DNA of 64,000 nt from NCBI GenBank assembly GCA_964577055.1, contig CAZNWC010000008.1, forward strand, positions 32,673-96,672. Direction: 5' to 3'. The translations under genes and the position numbers were made by a program. Shown one piece after another: positions 24,394 to 37,856 of the stretch. The stretch comes from an uncultured Chitinophaga sp. (GTDB lineage: Bacteria > Bacteroidota > Bacteroidia > UBA7662). Position 1 is the stretch's first letter, and the number at the start of each line of letters is the position of its first letter. Under the pieces are notes generated by a model, which saw only the letters and a program-made list of their open reading frames with translations, was not told where the DNA came from and searched no databases.

Positions 24394-24485
24394 TTGGTTG
24401 ATAAAACATAATGAAAAATCAAATTTGACTCGTATTTGATTCGCGAGTTAATTGCCAGCTCATTTGTTTTAAATCCAATCAAATA

Positions 24486-26840
24486 ATGCGCTCTTTTTTC
24501 CTGAAAATTTGGTGTCTTTTACTGCTCAGCGGAGGAATCATTCCGGCCTTCAGCCAAGTAAATCCAACAAATCGACAAATTGTTTTACAGGCTTTTTGGT
24601 GGGACTATTGGAACAGCAATTATCCCAATGGATGGGCAAATTACCTGGCAGAACTGGCCCCACGATTGAAAGAAATGGGCGTTGACGCCATTTGGATTCC
24701 ACCAACCATCAAGAACCAAGGCCAAAATGGCGTGGGCTATTCACCTTTCGACCATTACGATTTGGGGGATAAGTTCCAGAAAGGCTTTTTGAAAACACGT
24801 ATTGGTGACAAAGACGAATTGTTGCGCATGGTTGCAGTGATGAAAGCCAACGGAATTGATGTCATCCAAGATATTGTTTTCAACCACGTTGATGGTGCAG
24901 GCAGTAGCAATGGAGGTGGAGGACAAGATCCGGCTGCCATGGATGACGGCAGGACATCGCGTTACAAAAACTTCCGGTATGTGAGCTGGGTGACTCCCGC
25001 GGACAATGAAACACCTGCCAATTACCTTGCACGTTCAGGCAGATTTCACAAGAACTGGCAAAATTTCTATCCGAATCCAGGCAATGCATGTTGCTCAAAC
25101 GATATCAACTCGGTATGGTGGGGTCCTGACATAAGCTATGAGTCAAATGCCTTTGGCCAAAGCAGCAATGCGACATACAATCCCCTTCAAGGCAGCAATT
25201 ACATGCGCAATGAAATGCGCCGCTGGGTGATTTGGAACAAAAAGCAAATTGGCTGGGATGGAGTGCGTCTTGACGCAGTGAAACACTTTTCAACGGTTGT
25301 CACCGAAGATTTTCTGTGGAACATGCAGTTTGGCAGTCTTTGGGCCAATGGTGGGAATGATATGTTTGCTGTGGGTGAATGGGTAGGGGGCAGTGGAGAA
25401 CTCGATGCATGGGCCAATAATGTACAGAACAGGGCCAGTACCTTTGATTTTGCTTTGCGGAATGCGCTAACAGGCATTGTCAATGGGAATGGCAATTTTG
25501 ACATGGGCTCGGTGCCAAGCTTTCAGCAACAAAACAGGCAGCGCACAGTCCCCTTTGTGAACAATCACGATACTTTCAGGCCACAATTGAGTGCCAGCGG
25601 GAATTATACTGGATGGAATACAGGCTCACAATTGGGGCCTCATATTGAGCCCAACAATGTGCGATTGAGCGTTGTCTATGCCATCGTATTGGCGGTAGAT
25701 GGCGCTCCACAAGTGTTTTTCGAAGACTTGTTTAACATCGGATATTTGGGGAATCGCTTCAGTCACCGCCCCACGGTAGACAGTACCTTGCCGGTCCGCT
25801 CAGATATCGAAAACCTCATTTGGTGTCATCAGAACCTTCGTTTTAAGGAAGGGCCGTATTTAGTGCGTTGGCAAGCAGCCGATGCGCTGGTGATCGAAAG
25901 AGGTGGAAAAGCATTGGTAGCTGTTACCGATCATTGGACGAATTGGCAAAACCTGACAGGTGTGCAAACAAGTTGGCCCGACGGCACCGTTTTGGTAGAT
26001 TACAGCGGCGCCAACACTGGCACCCGCACGGTGTACGGCGGGGGGAAAGTCGATATCAGCATTCCTCCTTGCAATGGTACAGCTTTACAGGGAAGGAGGG
26101 GTTACAGTGTTTGGGGGCCACAAGGAATTACTGCCAATTACAGCCGGCCTGCAAAACGCATCACCCAAGAATGGGAAACGGATAATGACCTGGGCGATCG
26201 CCACGTAAGTAGCTTGCAACAGGGTGGAAGAACACCCAATAACAGCCTGGAATGCCGTGTGGTAGGCAGGGTGTTTGCCAAAGCAGGTGAACCCATCGAT
26301 ATCGAAGTATATCCTGGAGATACATTAAGATCCTTGACCATGGTTGTGCTGGATGCGAATTGCGATCCCTTGGATTCTGCTGCCGGTGCGGGTACCCTCA
26401 TCCGTACTTTCGTGCCAAGTCAATCGGGATGGTATACGATTCGTTTGCGCAATACAACTGGAGCACAACCCGGCCAAAAAGCATGGGTGAAGGTAACTTA
26501 TGAGGCGCCTGCTGTGGTACAAACCAATGTAACCAAGAACAAATGTGCGTGTACCACCACTACATTGCCTACTTCGGTAGATGAGGCACAAAAAGAAAAA
26601 TACTGGGTACTCTATCCCAATCCGGCCGACGATTATTTGGTGATTGAGACAGAAACGTCTTCGGTACAATGGCAAATGGCTCGGATACGAGATATACAAG
26701 GACGTGTATTGATGGAATTGCCTACCAATGAAGAGCATGGACGTTGGTCAATGGCTGTTTCTGGCTTGGCTACCGGTATGTATACCATAGAATTGGTACA
26801 TGCCCAAGGGTCGATTGTAGAGCGATTTATCAAGCGCTAA
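24486..26840 (+). CDS. secreted GH13 alpha-amylase-family enzyme with T9SS type A CTD
   Basis: GH13 regions 'DIVFNH', 'GVRLDAVKH', 'VGEW', 'FVNNHD'; CTD 'LYPNPADD...DIQGR...GMY...FIKR'. Confidence 0.9.
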   Translation: MRSFFLKIWCLLLLSGGIIPAFSQVNPTNRQIVLQAFWWDYWNSNYPNGWANYLAELAPRLKEMGVDAIWIPPTIKNQGQNGVGYSPFDHYDLGDKFQKGFLKTRIGDKDELLRMVAVMKANGIDVIQDIVFNHVDGAGSSNGGGGQDPAAMDDGRTSRYKNFRYVSWVTPADNETPANYLARSGRFHKNWQNFYPNPGNACCSNDINSVWWGPDISYESNAFGQSSNATYNPLQGSNYMRNEMRRWVIWNKKQIGWDGVRLDAVKHFSTVVTEDFLWNMQFGSLWANGGNDMFAVGEWVGGSGELDAWANNVQNRASTFDFALRNALTGIVNGNGNFDMGSVPSFQQQNRQRTVPFVNNHDTFRPQLSASGNYTGWNTGSQLGPHIEPNNVRLSVVYAIVLAVDGAPQVFFEDLFNIGYLGNRFSHRPTVDSTLPVRSDIENLIWCHQNLRFKEGPYLVRWQAADALVIERGGKALVAVTDHWTNWQNLTGVQTSWPDGTVLVDYSGANTGTRTVYGGGKVDISIPPCNGTALQGRRGYSVWGPQGITANYSRPAKRITQEWETDNDLGDRHVSSLQQGGRTPNNSLECRVVGRVFAKAGEPIDIEVYPGDTLRSLTMVVLDANCDPLDSAAGAGTLIRTFVPSQSGWYTIRLRNTTGAQPGQKAWVKVTYEAPAVVQTNVTKNKCACTTTTLPTSVDEAQKEKYWVLYPNPADDYLVIETETSSVQWQMARIRDIQGRVLMELPTNEEHGRWSMAVSGLATGMYTIELVHAQGSIVERFIKR

Positions 26841-28974: not shown

Positions 28975-29048
28975 TCCTCGATAGCTCAGTTGGTTAGAGC
29001 ACTTGACTGTTAATCAGGGGGTCGTTGGTTCGAGCCCAACTCGGGGAG
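28975..29048 (+). tRNA. tRNA-Asn(GTT)
   Basis: Acceptor TCCTCGA/TCGGGGA, D arm AGCTCAGTTGGTTAGAGC, anticodon loop CTGTTAA, T arm GTTGG-TTCGAGC-CCAAC; CCA not encoded. Confidence 0.97.
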
Positions 29049-29049
29049 C

Positions 29050-29078
29050 AAAAGCCGCACGTAAGTGCGGCTTTTTTT
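29050..29078 (+). terminator. tRNA terminator
   Basis: AAAAGCCGCAC-GTAA-GTGCGGCTTTTTTT. Confidence 0.9.
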
Positions 29079-29104
29079 GTTCGTACAACGCTGCCACTGG
29101 GTAC

Positions 29105-29143
29105 TTGGTTCGACCCCGATAGCTATCGGGGCAAACGGGGAGC
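29105..29143 (+). repeat. degenerate tRNA 3'-half copy interrupted by an 18-bp perfect palindrome
   Basis: TTGGTTCGA[CCCCGATAGCTATCGGGG]CAAACGGGGAGC versus tRNA TTGGTTCGAGCCCAACTCGGGGAGC; palindrome at 29114-29131. Confidence 0.75.
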
Positions 29144-29144
29144 G

Positions 29145-29173
29145 AAAGGTTATCGAAAGGCAACCTTTTTTTT
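29145..29173 (+). terminator. second terminator after the tRNA fragment
   Basis: AAAGGTT-ATCGAAAGGC-AACCTTT followed by a T run, in the same position relative to the fragment as the first terminator is to the tRNA. Confidence 0.65.
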
Positions 29174-29185
29174 GTTTTCTGGACC

Positions 29186-29278
29186 ATGCGTCACCTTTAC
29201 GTCTTATACAGCGGGCCTGCCGATAAATATTGCATTTGTTACAGCGAAGATCCTTGGGGTCAATAGGAATGGCACTGC
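29186..29278 (+). pseudogene. GIY-YIG nuclease remnant
   Basis: MRHLYVLYSGPADKYCICYSEDPWGQ*EWHC fits the small GIY-YIG pattern Y-vLYS...DKYYIGYS.D...RL..HN; single-base changes explain YCIC (YYIG) and Q* (RL). Confidence 0.7.
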
Positions 29279-29318
29279 GCCCTTGCTATCAATCATCTGA
29301 GCGCATGTCTACAGGCAC

Positions 29319-29567
29319 CTAAATTAATCGGCCAATGGCTTTGAAACGCTCAAACACGCGTTCATTGTGTGGCGCATCGGGTAATTCTTCGGTTAAATCT
29401 TGCCCTGCCCAGTGTTCGTAATGTTTGCCATTGCGCCACAACCTGCTTTTGGTCAGGTCGTATATGACACCCTGGTGAGCCACCCAGATTTCATCGCGGT
29501 CTTGTCCGTTGCGCAAAGCGAGTTGTGAGCGGGTATAGGAGGGAAGTTGGGTATTTTCTACCGACAT
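29319..29567 (-). CDS. cytochrome b5-like heme/steroid-binding protein
   Basis: 'YTRSQLALRNG...IWVA..G.IYDLT.S.LW..GKH.EHWAGQDLT...APH'. Confidence 0.9.
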   Translation of the reverse strand: MSVENTQLPSYTRSQLALRNGQDRDEIWVAHQGVIYDLTKSRLWRNGKHYEHWAGQDLTEELPDAPHNERVFERFKAIGRLI

Positions 29568-29614
29568 AAGGAACCGGAATGGCGTATTTTAGATTTGCAA
29601 AATAAAACAATTCC

Positions 29615-30223
29615 ATGAAAGCATTTTGGGACGAGCGTTATGCCGCATCCGAATACATCTATGGCGAACAACCCAATGTGTGGTTTGCCGAAAAATTACA
29701 AGCCCTGACTCCCGGCCGATTGTTGTTGCCTTGCGAAGGCGAAGGCCGGCAAGCTGTTCATGCGGCTGCCTTGGGCTGGGTAGTAGAAGCTTTCGACCAG
29801 AGCGAATTGGGGCGTGAAAAAGCCTTGGCTTTGGCAGCCAAACAGGGCCAAACCATCCACTACAGCCTGGCCGATGCCTTGGAATACCGGCATGCAGAGC
29901 CCTTCGATGCCCTGGCGTTGGTGTATGCCCATATGCCTGAAAACCTACGTGCAGCTTTTCACCAGCGGATGGCTGCGCAGCTTAAACCAGGCGGAACCCT
30001 GATCCTCGAAGGCTTTCATACCAGTCAGTTAGGTCGCTCCTCGGGTGGACCGCGTGACATGAGCATGCTTTTTACCCCCGAAATGCTAGAGGCCGATTTT
30101 GCTGGCTTCCACATCCTGCATTTGAACGTTGAAGAAGTGGTACTCAACGAAGGGGCTTACCACAACGGCGCCGCCAAGGTGGTGCGTTTGTTAGCGAGGA
30201 AGCCTCAGGAGAACACATTTTAA
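29615..30223 (+). CDS. class I SAM-dependent methyltransferase
   Basis: 'FWDERY...YG..PN', 'LPCEGEGR', 'LKPGG.LILEGF'; TAGATTTG -7 element at 29590. Confidence 0.88.
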   Translation: MKAFWDERYAASEYIYGEQPNVWFAEKLQALTPGRLLLPCEGEGRQAVHAAALGWVVEAFDQSELGREKALALAAKQGQTIHYSLADALEYRHAEPFDALALVYAHMPENLRAAFHQRMAAQLKPGGTLILEGFHTSQLGRSSGGPRDMSMLFTPEMLEADFAGFHILHLNVEEVVLNEGAYHNGAAKVVRLLARKPQENTF

Positions 30224-30236
30224 GCATCTTTGCAAG

Positions 30237-31250
30237 ATGAACATCCGTCCACGACGTAACCGCAAAAGTGCAGGTGTGCGCGACTTGGTGCGCGAAACCA
30301 CCCTCTCAACCAACGACCTGCTTTTCCCGCTTTTTTTGCTCGAAGACCGCAAAGCACGTGTGCCCGTAGCTTCCATGCCGGGCATCGACCGTTTGGGCAT
30401 GGACTTGCTTTTGCCCGAAATAGAAAGTTGTCTGAAGCTTGGCATCAAGGCATTTGATGTGTTTCCGGTGGTGCCCGAGTCATACAAAGACAAAATGGCC
30501 ACCTACAGTTATGCCGACGAAAATTTCTACAACAAGGCACTTGCCGAAATCAAGCAGCATTTCCCCGAGGCAGTCATCATGACCGATGTGGCCATGGATC
30601 CTTACAGTTCCGACGGCCACGACGGCATTGTTGAGAACGGCAGGATCCTCAACGACGAAACCCTCGAAGTGCTGGGCAAGATGGCCTTGGCCCAGGCACA
30701 AGCCGGCGCTGATATTATCGGCCCAAGCGATATGATGGACGGCAGGGTAGGGTACATTCGCACCGTGCTCGACGACCATGGCTTTACCGATGTAAGCATC
30801 ATGAGCTACACTGCCAAGTATGCCAGCGGCTTTTACGGTCCTTTCCGTGATGCATTAGACTCTGCTCCAAAGTTTGGCGATAAAAAAACCTACCAAATGG
30901 ACCCAGCCAACCGGCTCGAAGCCTTGCGCGAAGCCCTGCTCGATACTGAAGAAGGCGCCGATTTTCTGATGGTTAAGCCTGCCCTGGCATATTTAGATGT
31001 GATTCGATTGCTCAAAGACAACAGCGATTTGCCCATTGCCGCCTACAACGTCAGTGGCGAATATGCCATGATCAAGGCAGCAGCCATGCAAGGTTGGCTC
31101 GATTATGACCGGGTGATGATGGAAAGCCTGCTCAGCATCAAACGCGCCGGTGCCGACATTATCTTGACCTATTTCGCCAAAGACGCAGCCCAAATTCTCA
31201 AAAACGCCGGATATGCAACAGCCCATCCTCTTGCCTGTGGAAGGCAATAG
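30237..31250 (+). CDS. hemB: porphobilinogen synthase
   Basis: 'RPRRNR', 'DVAMDPYSSDGHDG', 'PSDMMDGR', 'YGPFRDA', 'MVKP', 'AYNVSGEY'. Confidence 0.97.
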   Translation: MNIRPRRNRKSAGVRDLVRETTLSTNDLLFPLFLLEDRKARVPVASMPGIDRLGMDLLLPEIESCLKLGIKAFDVFPVVPESYKDKMATYSYADENFYNKALAEIKQHFPEAVIMTDVAMDPYSSDGHDGIVENGRILNDETLEVLGKMALAQAQAGADIIGPSDMMDGRVGYIRTVLDDHGFTDVSIMSYTAKYASGFYGPFRDALDSAPKFGDKKTYQMDPANRLEALREALLDTEEGADFLMVKPALAYLDVIRLLKDNSDLPIAAYNVSGEYAMIKAAAMQGWLDYDRVMMESLLSIKRAGADIILTYFAKDAAQILKNAGYATAHPLACGRQ

Positions 31251-33931: not shown

Positions 33932-34184
33932 GCCACATTTCGCAATTTTAGCTTTGAGAAACTCGCGCAAAAGGCTAATTTAGAGTTTGGTATGTGCTGT
34001 CCTCATATGAAGAGAGCAGCAACAAGGTACCAAACCGTATGTTATGCTTAAAAAATTACGTGGTTTAACAGCTTTTTTGCTTGTTCTGCTTATTGCTCGA
34101 AGTAAAAGTGCTTCACACATTTTAGGGGGTGAAATCTCCTATTGGTTTAATGGGTTTTTAATTCGGCGCCTCTTATCTTGCCCT

Positions 34185-37100
34185 ATGGTTTTACCGAAGA
34201 TAAGTTGGACAAAGTGGCTGTTTGTTTCTTTGTTGTTTTTTACTTTTCAAACCAAGGCAACGCATATTCTCGGTGGTGAGATTTCGTACCGGTGTTTGAA
34301 TGCCAGCGGATTGTATGAATTTACCGTAACGGTTTTCAGGGATTGTGGGCCTACACCCGGAGGTTTTCCCTCTGCTGGGTTTGGCAACACCAACATCAAC
34401 CTGATGGGCCCCCATGGCACAGCCAATTTGCCTTTATTGCTTTCTGCGGATGTTTCTCCGCGTTGTGCCACAGGCTTGGCTTTTAGTTGCAATCCACCTT
34501 CTACAGGTGCTGGCGTTCAAGGGTCAATTTCGAAGTTTGTGTTTCGTGGTAATGTAAACTTGGGTGCAGTAGCAGCACCTCCTGTGGGTATTGGCCATAC
34601 CTTTTGGGTTACTTTGCCCTGTTGCAGGCCCGAAATCAACAATTCTTTGGCTTCAAATGGTTCGCAGTCATTGCAGGTGAAGATGTATCGGTATACCGAT
34701 CCTCTTACTGGCAATGCTTTAACGCCGGCACAGATGTGTGACAACTCGCCTACCTTTATTTCGGATCCGACAGCTTTGGCGATCTTAAATCCGAATGATA
34801 CCATTTTCTTCCAGAATTTTGCCCTTGATCCTGACATTCAGGACTCAACCGTTTTTGGTATTGGTGCCCCATTGAATGACACGCGCGTTCCCTACGCTTA
34901 CACTTTCCCGTACGCTTTGAACAATCCATTGCCAGGTATCTTGGGCCCGCCTACCATCACGGCTGCCAATACCCCCATCAATCCTACTTCGGGCGAGATT
35001 GTTTTTCGCCCAACAGTTACGGGTACTTTTGTGACGGTGATTAAGGTTTCTTCTTACCGTTGTGGGCAATTGATTTCTGAAGTATTCCGTGATTTTAACG
35101 TAAAGATTATTCCCAATCCCGGTGGTGCGCCACCACCTTTTAATCCAAACCCTGCATCACCGAACCATGCCTTCAGCCAACGTGCGCCTATTATCCAGCC
35201 GTACTTTTTAGATGCTACGGGTCTTGGTTTGTACAACATCACCTACTATGCGGGCGATACGGTTGACATTCCGGTATCGGCTACGGACTATTTTCCTACT
35301 CTTTCGGGCAATCCTGCCGATCCGACTACCTGGGTGCCGGTATTGAACACCTTCAGGGTGGTATTTAACGGTTCAGTGCTGAGCACGACCAACAACCCTG
35401 CGAGTGGTTGTCCGTTCCCGCCCTGCGCCACCTTGCGGGGGGTGTTGGATCCGGGTTTACCTGCTCCTCCTGTGAACGTGCCTACGGTACTGACGGGAGG
35501 CAACGGTCAAGCCATCGGCCAGGGTTATACGGCGGTAGCCGAAGGGGGTGGTCGTTTGATTTGGCGGCCTGATTGCGCGAACCTTCCGAGCAATGCCACC
35601 ACAGCCTGCGGAACATCGGTATCGAGCTATCAGGTGGCGGTTACTGCCATTGACCAGAACTGTCCGGTAGAAGGGCGCGACTCACGGGTGTATACCTTCA
35701 CTATTCGCGACTTGCCTGAGTTGAAGGCTCCCCGCTTTTATGGTGTGTCGGCTGTTGGTGCAAACAATACGGTTCGGATATACATGGAGCCGGAGCTCGA
35801 TACCTTGCTGATAGACCCGATCGACAGCTTCAACTACCAGAACCAAACCACCGCCTTTAAGCTGTTCAAGTCGGTAGACCGCCGTCGCCGCTCGTTTGAG
35901 TATTACCACGTATACCGGTCAACCTCACCCACGGGGCCGTTTACCCAGGTGGCTACCATCAACCAATTGTACACCTATGAGTGGAACGATACGGGTTTGG
36001 ACCTGGTGAACAACGATTATTATTACTATTTAACTACGGTATCTACCTGCGCATCGATAGAGTCGGCACCATCGGATACGATGAAGGTGATTCGCCTGCG
36101 CCTTAACAACAACGTAGCTGCGGGTTTGGCAGAACTAACATGGGATTCGATTGGAAGTCCGCGTTTCGACTACCTGGCAAACCACACTGGTCGTTATGTG
36201 ATAGAACGCGAGGTGCACAATGTGAGTCCCGGCGTATGGGAGCGAATAGATTCTGTTTCAGACATTTACCAGTACAGCCATCCGGTGGTGGTGTGCGACG
36301 ATTCGGTGAACTACCGGGTAGCCTTGATCGATACCAACGGCACGCCTTATTACTCACAGGTCGACGGGGATGATTTCAGGGACAATTTCCCGCCCGACAG
36401 TGTGATCATTCACCATGTGTCGGTGGATAGCATCACAGGATTGCCCTTGCTGAGCTGGTTGCCTGGTCCAAGTCCGGATGTAATTGCCTATGTGATTTAC
36501 CGGATGGACTTAACGGTGAACCCACCGGTAGCCATTCCGATTGACACGATTTACGGTTTCAACAACACCTATTGGTGGGATACCACGAGCATGCAAAATC
36601 CTTTCGACAGTTCGTTACACTACGGCATTGCGGGCTTGGATTCATGCGGCAATTTGGGCTTGATATCACGCACCCACAGCAGCATGCGCCTGGCGGGTGG
36701 CTTGGACCAGTGTATATCCTCGATTGTATTTGGCTGGAACGCCTACCGGGGCTGGGACCAGGTAGCGAACTACGAGATTTACCGTTCGGCCTCGGGTGGT
36801 CCATGGTCGCTGCTATCCACCATTGCGGGTGGTCAGCCACAGTACCAATACATCGACAATGACAATCTGATTACCGATTCGCTGTATTGCTACGTGATTC
36901 GTGCTACCCGACCGGGTGATGACACCACGGCCTTGTCGAACCCGATATGCGTAACGGCCCGTGTGATCCGCGAGCCGGAGTACACCTACATACGCAGGGT
37001 GACGGTAGACAGCACTTCAGGCTTGATCCATGTGCGTTTTGCCATCGATACGGCGGCAGATGCGGGTCGGTTTGAGTTGTACCGCTCAACGGCCTCGAGC

Positions 37101-37856
37101 GACTTTAGGTTGGTAGATGCTTTTGGTCCGGTGAACATGAACCTAAACGGCGGCTTTTTGGAGTATGAGTTCATTGACCAGGAAGCCGAGCCACACAAGG
37201 AGGTGTATTTCTACCGGGTATATGCCTACGATTTGTGCGATCAGCTGTTCGATACGTCGAATACCTCCAACAACATCTACTTGCAGGCCACGGCAGAGAT
37301 TGACTTCTTCAACAACCTGCGTTGGAACAGCTATGCCGACTGGTTGGGTGGAGTAGATGGATATGACATACTGCGATTTATTCCGGAGGAAGACTTGACC
37401 TATGTACCCTTGAACCGTTTGGGGGCGAACAGTGTGGTGTATGCCGACGATATCAAGAACTTCACCGACAACGATGGCTTGTACCGCTATTTGGTACAGG
37501 CGGTAGAAGGTGCGGGCAATCCGGCGGGCTTCAGCGATACTTCGTTGTCGAATGTGGTGGAGGTAATCCAGCAGCCGCGGGTGTTCATGCCAACGGCCTA
37601 CATGCCCTTGGGAGTAAACCGCTTGTTGTTCCCCAAAGGGGTATTTATAGAGGAGCGGGCGGGTTATTCGTTTGAGATATACAACCGTTGGGGCGAATTG
37701 GTATTTGCTACGAACGACTTCACGAAAGCTTGGGATGGTCGCGCGGCAGGTTCGGGTGAGTATGTAGACCCTGGGGTGTATGTGTTTGTGATGAACTTCA
37801 TCGGCAAAAACGGCAAGGCCTACAAACAAAATGGCACCTTTACCGTGATACGGTAA
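34185..37856 (+). CDS. large T9SS type B (gliding motility-associated CTD) cargo protein with FN3/Ig-like repeats
   Basis: Signal peptide from ATG 34185 (frame open from 34044); repeated 'YxIYRS..GP' modules; CTD 'FMPTAY.P.G.N...IYNRWGELVF...WDG...GVYV...GTFTVIR'. Confidence 0.85.
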   Translation: MVLPKISWTKWLFVSLLFFTFQTKATHILGGEISYRCLNASGLYEFTVTVFRDCGPTPGGFPSAGFGNTNINLMGPHGTANLPLLLSADVSPRCATGLAFSCNPPSTGAGVQGSISKFVFRGNVNLGAVAAPPVGIGHTFWVTLPCCRPEINNSLASNGSQSLQVKMYRYTDPLTGNALTPAQMCDNSPTFISDPTALAILNPNDTIFFQNFALDPDIQDSTVFGIGAPLNDTRVPYAYTFPYALNNPLPGILGPPTITAANTPINPTSGEIVFRPTVTGTFVTVIKVSSYRCGQLISEVFRDFNVKIIPNPGGAPPPFNPNPASPNHAFSQRAPIIQPYFLDATGLGLYNITYYAGDTVDIPVSATDYFPTLSGNPADPTTWVPVLNTFRVVFNGSVLSTTNNPASGCPFPPCATLRGVLDPGLPAPPVNVPTVLTGGNGQAIGQGYTAVAEGGGRLIWRPDCANLPSNATTACGTSVSSYQVAVTAIDQNCPVEGRDSRVYTFTIRDLPELKAPRFYGVSAVGANNTVRIYMEPELDTLLIDPIDSFNYQNQTTAFKLFKSVDRRRRSFEYYHVYRSTSPTGPFTQVATINQLYTYEWNDTGLDLVNNDYYYYLTTVSTCASIESAPSDTMKVIRLRLNNNVAAGLAELTWDSIGSPRFDYLANHTGRYVIEREVHNVSPGVWERIDSVSDIYQYSHPVVVCDDSVNYRVALIDTNGTPYYSQVDGDDFRDNFPPDSVIIHHVSVDSITGLPLLSWLPGPSPDVIAYVIYRMDLTVNPPVAIPIDTIYGFNNTYWWDTTSMQNPFDSSLHYGIAGLDSCGNLGLISRTHSSMRLAGGLDQCISSIVFGWNAYRGWDQVANYEIYRSASGGPWSLLSTIAGGQPQYQYIDNDNLITDSLYCYVIRATRPGDDTTALSNPICVTARVIREPEYTYIRRVTVDSTSGLIHVRFAIDTAADAGRFELYRSTASSDFRLVDAFGPVNMNLNGGFLEYEFIDQEAEPHKEVYFYRVYAYDLCDQLFDTSNTSNNIYLQATAEIDFFNNLRWNSYADWLGGVDGYDILRFIPEEDLTYVPLNRLGANSVVYADDIKNFTDNDGLYRYLVQAVEGAGNPAGFSDTSLSNVVEVIQQPRVFMPTAYMPLGVNRLLFPKGVFIEERAGYSFEIYNRWGELVFATNDFTKAWDGRAAGSGEYVDPGVYVFVMNFIGKNGKAYKQNGTFTVIR

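Follow-up and report, generated by a model that had tools for sequence, protein, structure and literature searches.

What does an incomplete second copy of a tRNA do directly behind a tRNA-Asn gene, and does the short open reading frame (ORF) that follows it belong to the same structure? The question is raised by positions 28975 to 29318 of a 64,000-nucleotide (nt) stretch of DNA, hereafter the window, from the genome of an uncultured Chitinophaga sp. (assembly GCA_964577055.1, contig CAZNWC010000008.1). The original prediction, made from the letters of this DNA, saw here an integrase-free unit composed of a stand-alone GIY-YIG nuclease gene, a partial tRNA copy and a palindrome, and this layout indeed recurs beside tRNA genes in related genomes. 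We consider it likely that two or more tandem units of such a small, tRNA-nested cassette once stood here and that 29079-29318 is what is left of them, now dead.

The intact tRNA-Asn(GTT) gene occupies 28975..29049 on the forward strand (ARAGORN; Rfam RF00005, 65.7 bits) and is the sole tRNA-Asn among the 31 tRNAs that ARAGORN detects in the 45-contig, 2.72-Mb assembly. It is followed on the same strand by an intrinsic terminator (29050..29078, stem 29050-29075) with an 11-bp stem, a 4-nt loop and a T-run, which was called by the terminator scan, folds at -17.9 kcal/mol (z -5.45), and has a stem sequence that is kept behind the tRNA-Asn of sister genera (similar stems in genomes G007, G010 and G013). 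After a 26-nt spacer (29079..29104, forward strand) comes a pseudo-tRNA-Asn 3′ fragment (29105..29143, forward strand) consisting of the 5′ strand of the T-stem, the start of the T-loop, the perfect 18-nt palindrome CCCCGATAGCTATCGGGG (29114..29131) lodged in the T-loop, and the 3′ strand of the acceptor stem. The fragment was delimited by a pattern search for TTGGTTCGA-N5-30-CGGGGAGC, in which TTGGTTCGA is the T-stem and T-loop start of the tRNA and CGGGGAGC its acceptor 3′ strand, both repeated in the pseudo-tRNA; the window holds two matches, one in the real tRNA (29025-29049) and one in the second copy (29105-29143), and 100 shuffles hold none. ARAGORN, Rfam and the terminator scan place the intact tRNA, its terminator and the spacer exactly where the original prediction had put them, and the pattern search bears out the second tRNA 3′ part with an 18-nt palindrome in its T-loop. 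In the window stretch Rfam recognizes nothing but tRNA at E<=10, and the same is true at the gathering threshold in three intact cassettes of relatives.

The ORF itself (29186..29266, forward strand, 26 codons) starts with an ATG 12 nt past the T-run of a second, terminator-like hairpin with T8 (29144..29173, forward strand; found by folding), whose position matches the second terminator of a related locus, L150. A hidden Markov model (HMM) of a nuclease clade linked to tRNA-Met (80 relatives) gave the peptide no support (6.9 bits, E=28), and this failure means that the clade matters: the HMM of a tRNA-Asn-linked clade, built from 47 distinct proteins of metagenome contigs, ranks the peptide second among the 76,149 six-frame ORFs of the genome (17.5 bits, E=0.014), and the alignment runs from the first Met over positions 2-25 of the model. 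When the peptide was compared by tblastn with 301 genomes of the class, 15 of them, its own included, had matches at E<=0.1; the best foreign match (55% over 22 amino acids (aa), E=2.6e-4) is an 83-codon GIY-YIG frame that comes straight after another tRNA-Asn with its terminator. The peptide carries a GIY-like LYVLYS, reads CIC at the position of YIG, and ends in ..DPWGQ* where the relatives read ..DPWRR/KRR, the stop falling just before the catalytic Arg. The set of GIY and YIG motifs with catalytic Arg, His/Tyr, Glu and Asn is incomplete in the window ORF, everything downstream of the stop being missing. We identify the peptide because its context and its modest score agree, not by the score alone; it fits the tRNA-Asn nuclease lineage, and the ORF is best read as the decayed 5′ stump of a gene of this clade, a fragment rather than an enzyme. 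Beyond its stop, a converging cytochrome-b5-like gene (Pfam cyt-b5 match) ends at 29319, and there is therefore no space for a complete nuclease gene.

What a complete unit looks like can be seen in relatives of this locus, which are common across Bacteroidota. Judged from its sequence, a live unit consists of an intact tRNA, a terminator, a single-domain GIY-YIG gene of 82-105 aa, a palindrome-bearing partial copy of the same tRNA, and again a terminator. The 3′ end of the gene runs into the partial tRNA copy. GC-rich palindromes of the TCCG/TCCCG...CGGA/CGGGA type take the place of one or two arms of this copy, and the units often stand in tandem arrays. On contig C4 of genome G007, for example, an intact tRNA-Met and its terminator are followed 57 nt on by an 82-aa GIY-YIG gene; 5 nt past its stop lies a partial tRNA copy that reaches as far as the anticodon loop. 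Ten tRNA bases have there given way to the 16-nt palindrome TCCGTCAGCTGACGGA, behind which come the tRNA 3′ end and a terminator. This unit of about 365 nt is present in three tandem copies, of which the middle one is frameshifted. Within the same family the theme returns at tRNA-Asp (G004), at four tRNA-Ala loci (G002, G003, G004, G010) and at tRNA-Asn (G007, G010), where the hairpin replaces the anticodon arm or the T-arm or is inserted in the D-loop. In G002, which belongs to the genus of the window, a pseudo-tRNA-Ala holds in its D-loop exactly the inner 16-mer CCCGATAGCTATCGGG of CCCCGATAGCTATCGGGG.

The order of the window, namely tRNA-Asn, terminator, hairpin-bearing pseudo-tRNA, terminator and GIY-YIG, is also the order of L150, and the two sequences align; the pseudo-tRNA architecture of the window is present in both L149 and L150. 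Like the members of this class, the window has an intact same-strand tRNA directly upstream and a palindrome-bearing partial copy of the same tRNA. The intact relatives L050, L053 and L149 score 55.9, 45.9 and 58.1 bits against PF01541 (cut-off 22.6). For three tRNA-linked proteins no NCBIfam family was found, and PDB returned only weak sequence matches to UPF0213/SLX1; PADLOC matches were weak and partial and were disregarded.

Arrays comprise 3 to 10 units. Small GIY-YIG genes form a series of ten in tandem with 457-nt spacing in G215 (C9:906040-910392) and one of nine with about 374-nt spacing in G158 (C1:489461-492510). A Mucilaginibacter record (L070, positions 1-2545) gives seven ARAGORN calls of "tRNA-SeC(tca)" at 373-nt spacing, which are the hairpin-bearing pseudo-tRNAs of a tandem array and thus an annotation pitfall. 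Decay is seen as well, in the form of pseudogenes on contig C13 of G007 and at the four tRNA-Ala loci and of an ORF-less unit in G013. This last unit (L171, G013:C14, positions 2270-2600) is a tRNA-Met cassette reduced to tRNA, terminator, a 45-nt leftover, hairpin-bearing pseudo-tRNA and terminator, with a 100-N run inside the tRNA-Met of the record. Because such an ORF-less cassette exists and the window aligns to the layout of L150, we infer that the 26-nt spacer of the window is probably the residue of a first cassette unit from which the ORF and the 5′ portion of the pseudo-tRNA have gone. Also in G013 (L055, contig C6, about 1240-2040), a YhbQ-like small GIY-YIG gene has direct repeats of about 130 nt on both sides and no tRNA nearby.

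How general is the association with tRNA genes? For the tRNA-Met clade, relatives were collected with a 3-protein alignment, and the best 80 of 315 from species-representative genomes were taken, chosen by protein similarity alone. A same-strand tRNA or tRNA-like call lies within 700 nt upstream at 65 of these 80 loci, and at 64 of the 72 that have at least 700 nt of flank, where about 0.3 such loci would be expected by chance; the median gap between tRNA and gene is 46 nt. The isotype is tRNA-Met(CAT) at 63 of the 65 loci, the other two being a tRNA-Asn and an array called tRNA-SeC. Where the tRNA is a normal one (64 loci), a copy of the local tRNA (exact match of at least 10 nt) follows within 160 nt past the stop at 55 loci, and a TCCG..CGGA-type palindrome is found there at 43, most commonly TCCGCCAGCTGGCGGA. 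Its variants keep their pairing through compensatory changes (CC/GG, TC/GA, TT/AA, GC/GC). In 35 of 43 cases the four bases before the palindrome are CATA, and in 41 of 43 the base after it is C; this is consistent with cleavage of single strands a few nt upstream of the hairpin, as described below for SsnA, but both are tRNA positions as well. The tRNA-derived flanks track the tRNA of each host while the palindrome stays constant.

For the tRNA-Asn clade, to which the window peptide would belong, a tRNA-Asn lies within 400 nt upstream at 37 of 67 metagenome loci (37 of the 51 with enough flank), at gaps of 33-120 nt; of the remainder, 16 have too little flank, 12 no tRNA, one a tRNA-Lys and one an odd call. 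The neighbourhood of GIY-YIG genes and tRNA fragments or palindromes that the original prediction had proposed to score is therefore present in both clades (64/72 and 37/51 loci beside a tRNA). In most of 29 Asn-clade loci the last codons of the ORF (..AQLVRVP..) are a copy of the tRNA D-arm plus a hairpin of the type TCCCGCACNTGCGGGA, and the stop codon is at or beside the TTAAT of the anticodon loop, after which come the remaining part of the tRNA and a terminator. In intact relatives the constant hairpin stands where the anticodon arm would have its 5′ half, not in the T-loop, and the T-loop hairpin of the window type is a frequent second insertion, found in the T-arm of about 10 of the 29 loci. 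Taken by their sequences, the nuclease lineages are each tied to one tRNA isotype. On contig C11 of the window's own genome, outside the window (83700-84000), there is a cluster of short GC-rich hairpin repeats resembling GGCCTGCGGCC with no adjacent tRNA or GIY-YIG gene; it contains TCCCGCACGTGCGGGA, which is identical to the typical hairpin of the tRNA-Asn cassette clade.

The palindrome also has a life of its own. The original prediction had suggested looking for it elsewhere, and of 401 genomes sampled from the class, 128 (from 80 of 199 genera) contain CCCGATAGCTATCGGG, at up to 60 copies per genome, with none for the reversed control and a chance expectation of about 0.3 occurrences over all 401 genomes. 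Among 30 sampled loci the 16-mer is mostly part of the 18-mer (T before, A after), flanks being otherwise unrelated, and at six of them a tRNA lies no more than about 450 nt away (0.4 expected). Searched with a profile built on five small GIY-YIG proteins, 295 of the 401 genomes give a match, distributed as 120 of 128 palindrome-positive versus 175 of 273 palindrome-negative genomes (Fisher p=2e-11 from hand counts, uncorrected for relatedness), and none of the 32 genomes that hold 10 or more copies of the 16-mer lacks such a match. Leaving out G125 and G209, which are flagged as unpublished, the figures become 127/399 for the palindrome, 293/399 for GIY-YIG and 31/31 for the high-copy genomes; no claim depends on these two.

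What, then, happened at the tRNA-Asn of the window? Window DNA matches 40 of 41 related genomes (G000 itself counted), but the match stops at about 29081, where terminator 1 ends, and no relative shares sequence with the window beyond this point. The locus varies between close relatives, where an invariant one would have counted against the original prediction; in all eight loci inspected, the DNA downstream of tRNA-Asn differs. In the comparison of 29267-30300, the block of cytochrome-b5, methyltransferase and hemB genes is inverted or displaced relative to pfkB-tRNA-Asn in the same-genus genomes G002 (C41) and G003 (C2), and this opposite orientation points to a likely rearrangement breakpoint within 29267-29318, the 52-nt gap between the ORF stop and the converging gene. 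Gene order in the relatives thus suggests that an inversion breakpoint probably removed the remainder of the cassette.

The element seems to be extinct in this genome, unit 1 having lost its ORF and unit 2 being cut after codon 26 at the inversion breakpoint; we read it so because the genome has no intact gene of the tRNA-Asn clade and CCCGATAGCTATCGGG is present in a single copy in its 2.72-Mb assembly. None of the other 30 tRNAs carries a comparable relic (9-mer copies were sought within 500 nt and gave only similarity to neighbouring tRNAs or lone 9-11-mers). What still functions here is only the tRNA and perhaps the terminators. The only small GIY-YIG gene of the genome, on contig C17, belongs to another subfamily. 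This gene (C17:276-584; L001 1-900), which lies outside the window, is intact, encodes 102 aa (PF01541, 68 bits; motif ..YILECADGTYYVGST..), and sits among tandem and inverted repeats with GAGCGGAGCCGAAA, a 14-mer found 13 times in the genome against none for the reversed control. The C17 gene and its GAGCGGAGCCGAAA repeats may be a second, live pair of nuclease and repeat.

Duplicated tRNA 3′ ends are a classic mark of integrase target sites, and one may ask whether the locus is simply an attL/attR scar of a lost integrase island, with the palindrome an unrelated REP-like insertion (REP, repetitive extragenic palindromic) and the 26-codon ORF a product of chance. The direct repeat of a tRNA 3′ part behind an intact tRNA is just what such islands leave, the right flank is rearranged so that removal of an island is conceivable, and the palindrome, taken by itself, is a dispersed repeat. 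We nevertheless regard this as very improbable. The start position and sequence of the ORF are typical of the tRNA-Asn GIY-YIG clade, and the full order is reproduced in L150 and at tRNA-Ala loci. Units of 0.3-0.5 kb in tandem and a repeat interrupted by a palindrome are also unlike integrase islands. Moreover, integrase, transposase, Y1 (IS200/IS605-like) and RAYT families (RAYT, REP-associated tyrosine transposase) are absent from the 25 ORFs scanned between 13.7 and 44.5 kb, thus within about 15 kb of the locus, and the original prediction was right to call the unit free of these enzymes; of the 46 ORFs with 130 aa or more in this region, the scan covered 25, those that overlap longer frames (21) having been set aside. 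All 25 neighbours are housekeeping- or secretion-like. Two of the large proteins in the window, at 24429-26837 (+) and 34011-37853 (+), have type-IX-secretion sorting domains (Por_Secre_tail, CHU_C), which fits an origin in Bacteroidota.

The reading of the locus as a cassette remnant has to be set against a number of results that weigh against it, the first of which concern the window itself. A hmmscan of the peptide 29186-29266 found no Pfam family at E<=10, a genome-wide PF01541 search at E<=1 recovered only the C17 gene and UvrC and missed the peptide, and the support from the clade HMM is modest, at E=0.014. The predicted GIY-YIG start 12 nt beyond the hairpin is thus upheld by the position of the ORF and by the Asn-clade HMM, but not by Pfam. 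The predicted second terminator fares similarly: the hairpin with its eight U is there, but it is weak (-7.5 kcal/mol, z -2.27, 6 of 200 shuffles equal or better), fails the criteria of the terminator scan and was not called by it. In addition, the published degenerate pattern of the Ssn-related motif (SRM), which accompanies the small Neisseria nuclease discussed below, has no match on either strand in the window or in 77 Met-clade loci (shuffles give 0.1-0.2). If the silence of Pfam and the weakness of the second terminator are taken as a hint of chance resemblance in ordinary intergenic DNA, the bipartite tRNA match absent from all 100 shuffles, the 16-mer present in 127 other genomes where about 0.3 occurrences were expected overall, and the second rank of the ORF in the whole genome leave that idea with next to no credence.

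A second group of contrary results concerns the tie between palindrome and nuclease. No tRNA lies close to 24 of the 30 copies of the 16-mer that were sampled, and no GIY-YIG gene close to 29 of them, and the link between palindrome and nuclease is therefore statistical only; the profile behind the genome-level correlation also detects other small GIY-YIG subfamilies. One could thus suppose that the two are independent, with self-propagating or host-made hairpins settling in non-essential, hairpin-prone DNA, spare tRNA copies included, the tRNA duplicated by unequal recombination and the GIY-YIG gene a mere passenger. A GIY-YIG gene near just one of 30 palindrome loci, eight palindrome-positive genomes without a GIY-YIG match, and a hairpin position that varies between D-loop, anticodon arm and T-loop would all agree with this. 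Yet within each nuclease clade the hairpin is constant in sequence and position across hosts while the tRNA flanks are host-like (in the Met clade CATA in 35/43 and C in 41/43), in the Asn clade it lies inside the last codons of the ORF, and the genomes richest in the 16-mer have a small GIY-YIG match without exception (32/32). Independence is in our view quite unlikely.

The third group concerns descent. All tRNA-Asn copies within the family are degenerate, as would also be expected had they been inherited vertically long ago and then decayed. Phage (50,697 records) and plasmid collections gave no match to the Asn-clade protein, and therefore no vector is known. These results would suit a vertically inherited module that serves its host, through an Ssn-like control of incoming single-stranded DNA (ssDNA) or through tRNA amplification under stress or phage attack, the window then being a decayed host gene. 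Such a module would also account for an ORF of 70-120 aa that is open at 77 of 80 Met-clade loci, for occupation of the same tRNA across orders, and for small GIY-YIG matches in 295 of 401 genomes; among characterized proteins, SsnA modulates transformation (PMC11893778) and tRNA amplification driven by SegB benefits its phage (PMC13096335). Against it stand the frequent pseudogenes and ORF-less units, the arrays of 3-10 units, the several isotype-specific lineages with one common architecture, and a protein in G007 that is closer to that of a Fluviicola record (68% identity) than to that of its congener G010 (62%). The distribution within one family is patchy as well: UvrC-type matches are the only ones in 3 of 4 genus-g3 and 9 of 11 genus-g2 genomes having a match, while genus g4 has several small copies (G008, G012 and G019 yield shorter frames). 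We consider a host-serving module unlikely, although of the explanations that compete with a cassette remnant it has the most in its favour.

Returning to the cassette, the sequences of window and relatives display a fixed architecture, isotype lineages, host-like flanks around a clade-constant, paired hairpin, arrays, decay and patchiness. How the cassette would act is a matter of analogy, and the scheme that follows seems to us about as plausible as its opposite, or slightly less so. GIY-YIG enzymes are hydrolytic and, to our knowledge, have no known strand transfer. The nuclease would bind, nick or cut hairpin DNA in or beside the tRNA-derived repeat, and the break would be repaired through homologous recombination between tRNA repeats. 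Repair would copy the unit, giving rise to tandem arrays and, after DNA transfer, to conversion of empty tRNA alleles. The palindrome might serve as the handle of the nuclease, or mark or disable the spare tRNA copy, or both, and the same 16-18-nt palindromes would also be scattered in trans through genomes. Cutting at tRNA T-arms, shielding of the duplicated site from re-cleavage by the palindrome, and a spread resembling that of REP elements and their RAYT, all of which had been proposed for this locus, would likewise be analogies with what is described for SegB (PMC13096335) and Ssn (PMC11893778).

On this basis we put forward, tentatively, that the window preserves, in fossil form, a class of selfish DNA not described before: cassettes of 0.3-0.5 kb made of a minimal GIY-YIG nuclease and its cognate palindrome, for which the tRNA gene would be at once target, source of homology arms for break-induced copying, and safe harbour. 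By duplicating part of the tRNA the cassette would leave the gene itself unharmed, the spare tRNA copy would be plugged by the palindrome, arrays would form, palindromes would be seeded in trans, and each lineage would keep to a single isotype, a partnership of the REP/RAYT kind on a different nuclease fold. Such a class, if it works in this way, would amount to an autonomous mobile unit of very small size and would explain the orphan "GIY-YIG nuclease family" genes beside tRNAs, the pseudo-tRNA debris and the dispersed GC-rich palindromes in Bacteroidota, besides being a source of many natural nuclease-hairpin pairs for ssDNA tools. For the genome studied here the message is more modest, namely dead DNA that marks a past invasion and an inversion breakpoint.

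Among known systems, the nearest in its nuclease is SsnA of Neisseria meningitidis, a 94-aa single-domain GIY-YIG protein whose binding to a hairpin of the TCCCGCG..CGCGGGA type requires ssDNA and whose cut falls a few nt upstream of it (Chenal et al., 2025, PMC11893778). Hairpin repeats (NTS/SRM) usually flank the gene, and the authors liken the arrangement NTS-ssnA-NTS to an insertion sequence; Supplementary Data 4 of the same work flags some Bacteroidota genomes (two Mucilaginibacter, Chitinophaga barathri and Fibrella aestuarina) as having cd10448 homologs (PMC11893778). Like SsnA, the cassette proteins are single-domain GIY-YIG enzymes of roughly 90-100 aa without a DNA-binding domain (82-105 aa and one PF01541 domain in the relatives), and both systems have GC-rich flanking hairpins with a TCCCG...CGGGA-like core, dispersed repeats, and a correlation of nuclease and repeat across genomes. 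The word "tRNA" does not occur in the main text of PMC11893778. The cassettes differ from Ssn in that their gene has its place at a tRNA gene, runs out within an incomplete tRNA copy and is repeated in tandem arrays.

The tRNA linkage finds its counterpart in SegB, a GIY-YIG protein with a C-terminal DNA-binding part. SegB is a free-standing homing endonuclease of the tRNA cluster of T-even phages that cuts inside tRNA genes; its nuclease activity together with homologous recombination leads to tandem amplification of segB plus tRNA-Tyr, and C-terminally truncated SegB loses its toxicity (Chihara et al., 2026, PMC13096335). The likeness extends to a GIY-YIG gene beside tRNA genes, tandem repeats of nuclease and tRNA, and a widespread association with tRNAs, and the portions of that source used here report no palindrome-substituted tRNA copies at SegB loci. 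Unlike SegB, which is a phage protein, the cassette proteins have 82-105 aa in a single domain, are chromosomal, and have no match in the 50,697 phage records.

The third parallel is that of REP elements, which pair with RAYT (Y1, IS200/IS605-like) transposases. As there, and as is also discussed for Ssn in part of PMC11893778, one small gene goes together with short dispersed palindromes that form ssDNA hairpins, and the copy number differs greatly between genomes. The differences from REP/RAYT are a GIY-YIG fold instead of a Y1 transposase, a home site at a tRNA gene, and a single palindrome copy in the own genome of the window instead of hundreds. Small GIY-YIG nucleases with cognate hairpins and the linkage of nucleases with tRNAs in phages are thus already known. 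Our literature searches found no description of small GIY-YIG genes nested at bacterial tRNA genes, and the same holds for an ORF ending inside a hairpin-substituted tRNA copy, for isotype-specific lineages and for their arrays. If the class works as proposed, it would unite the hairpin-guided ssDNA cutting of Ssn and the tRNA-locus amplification of SegB in one chromosomal element.

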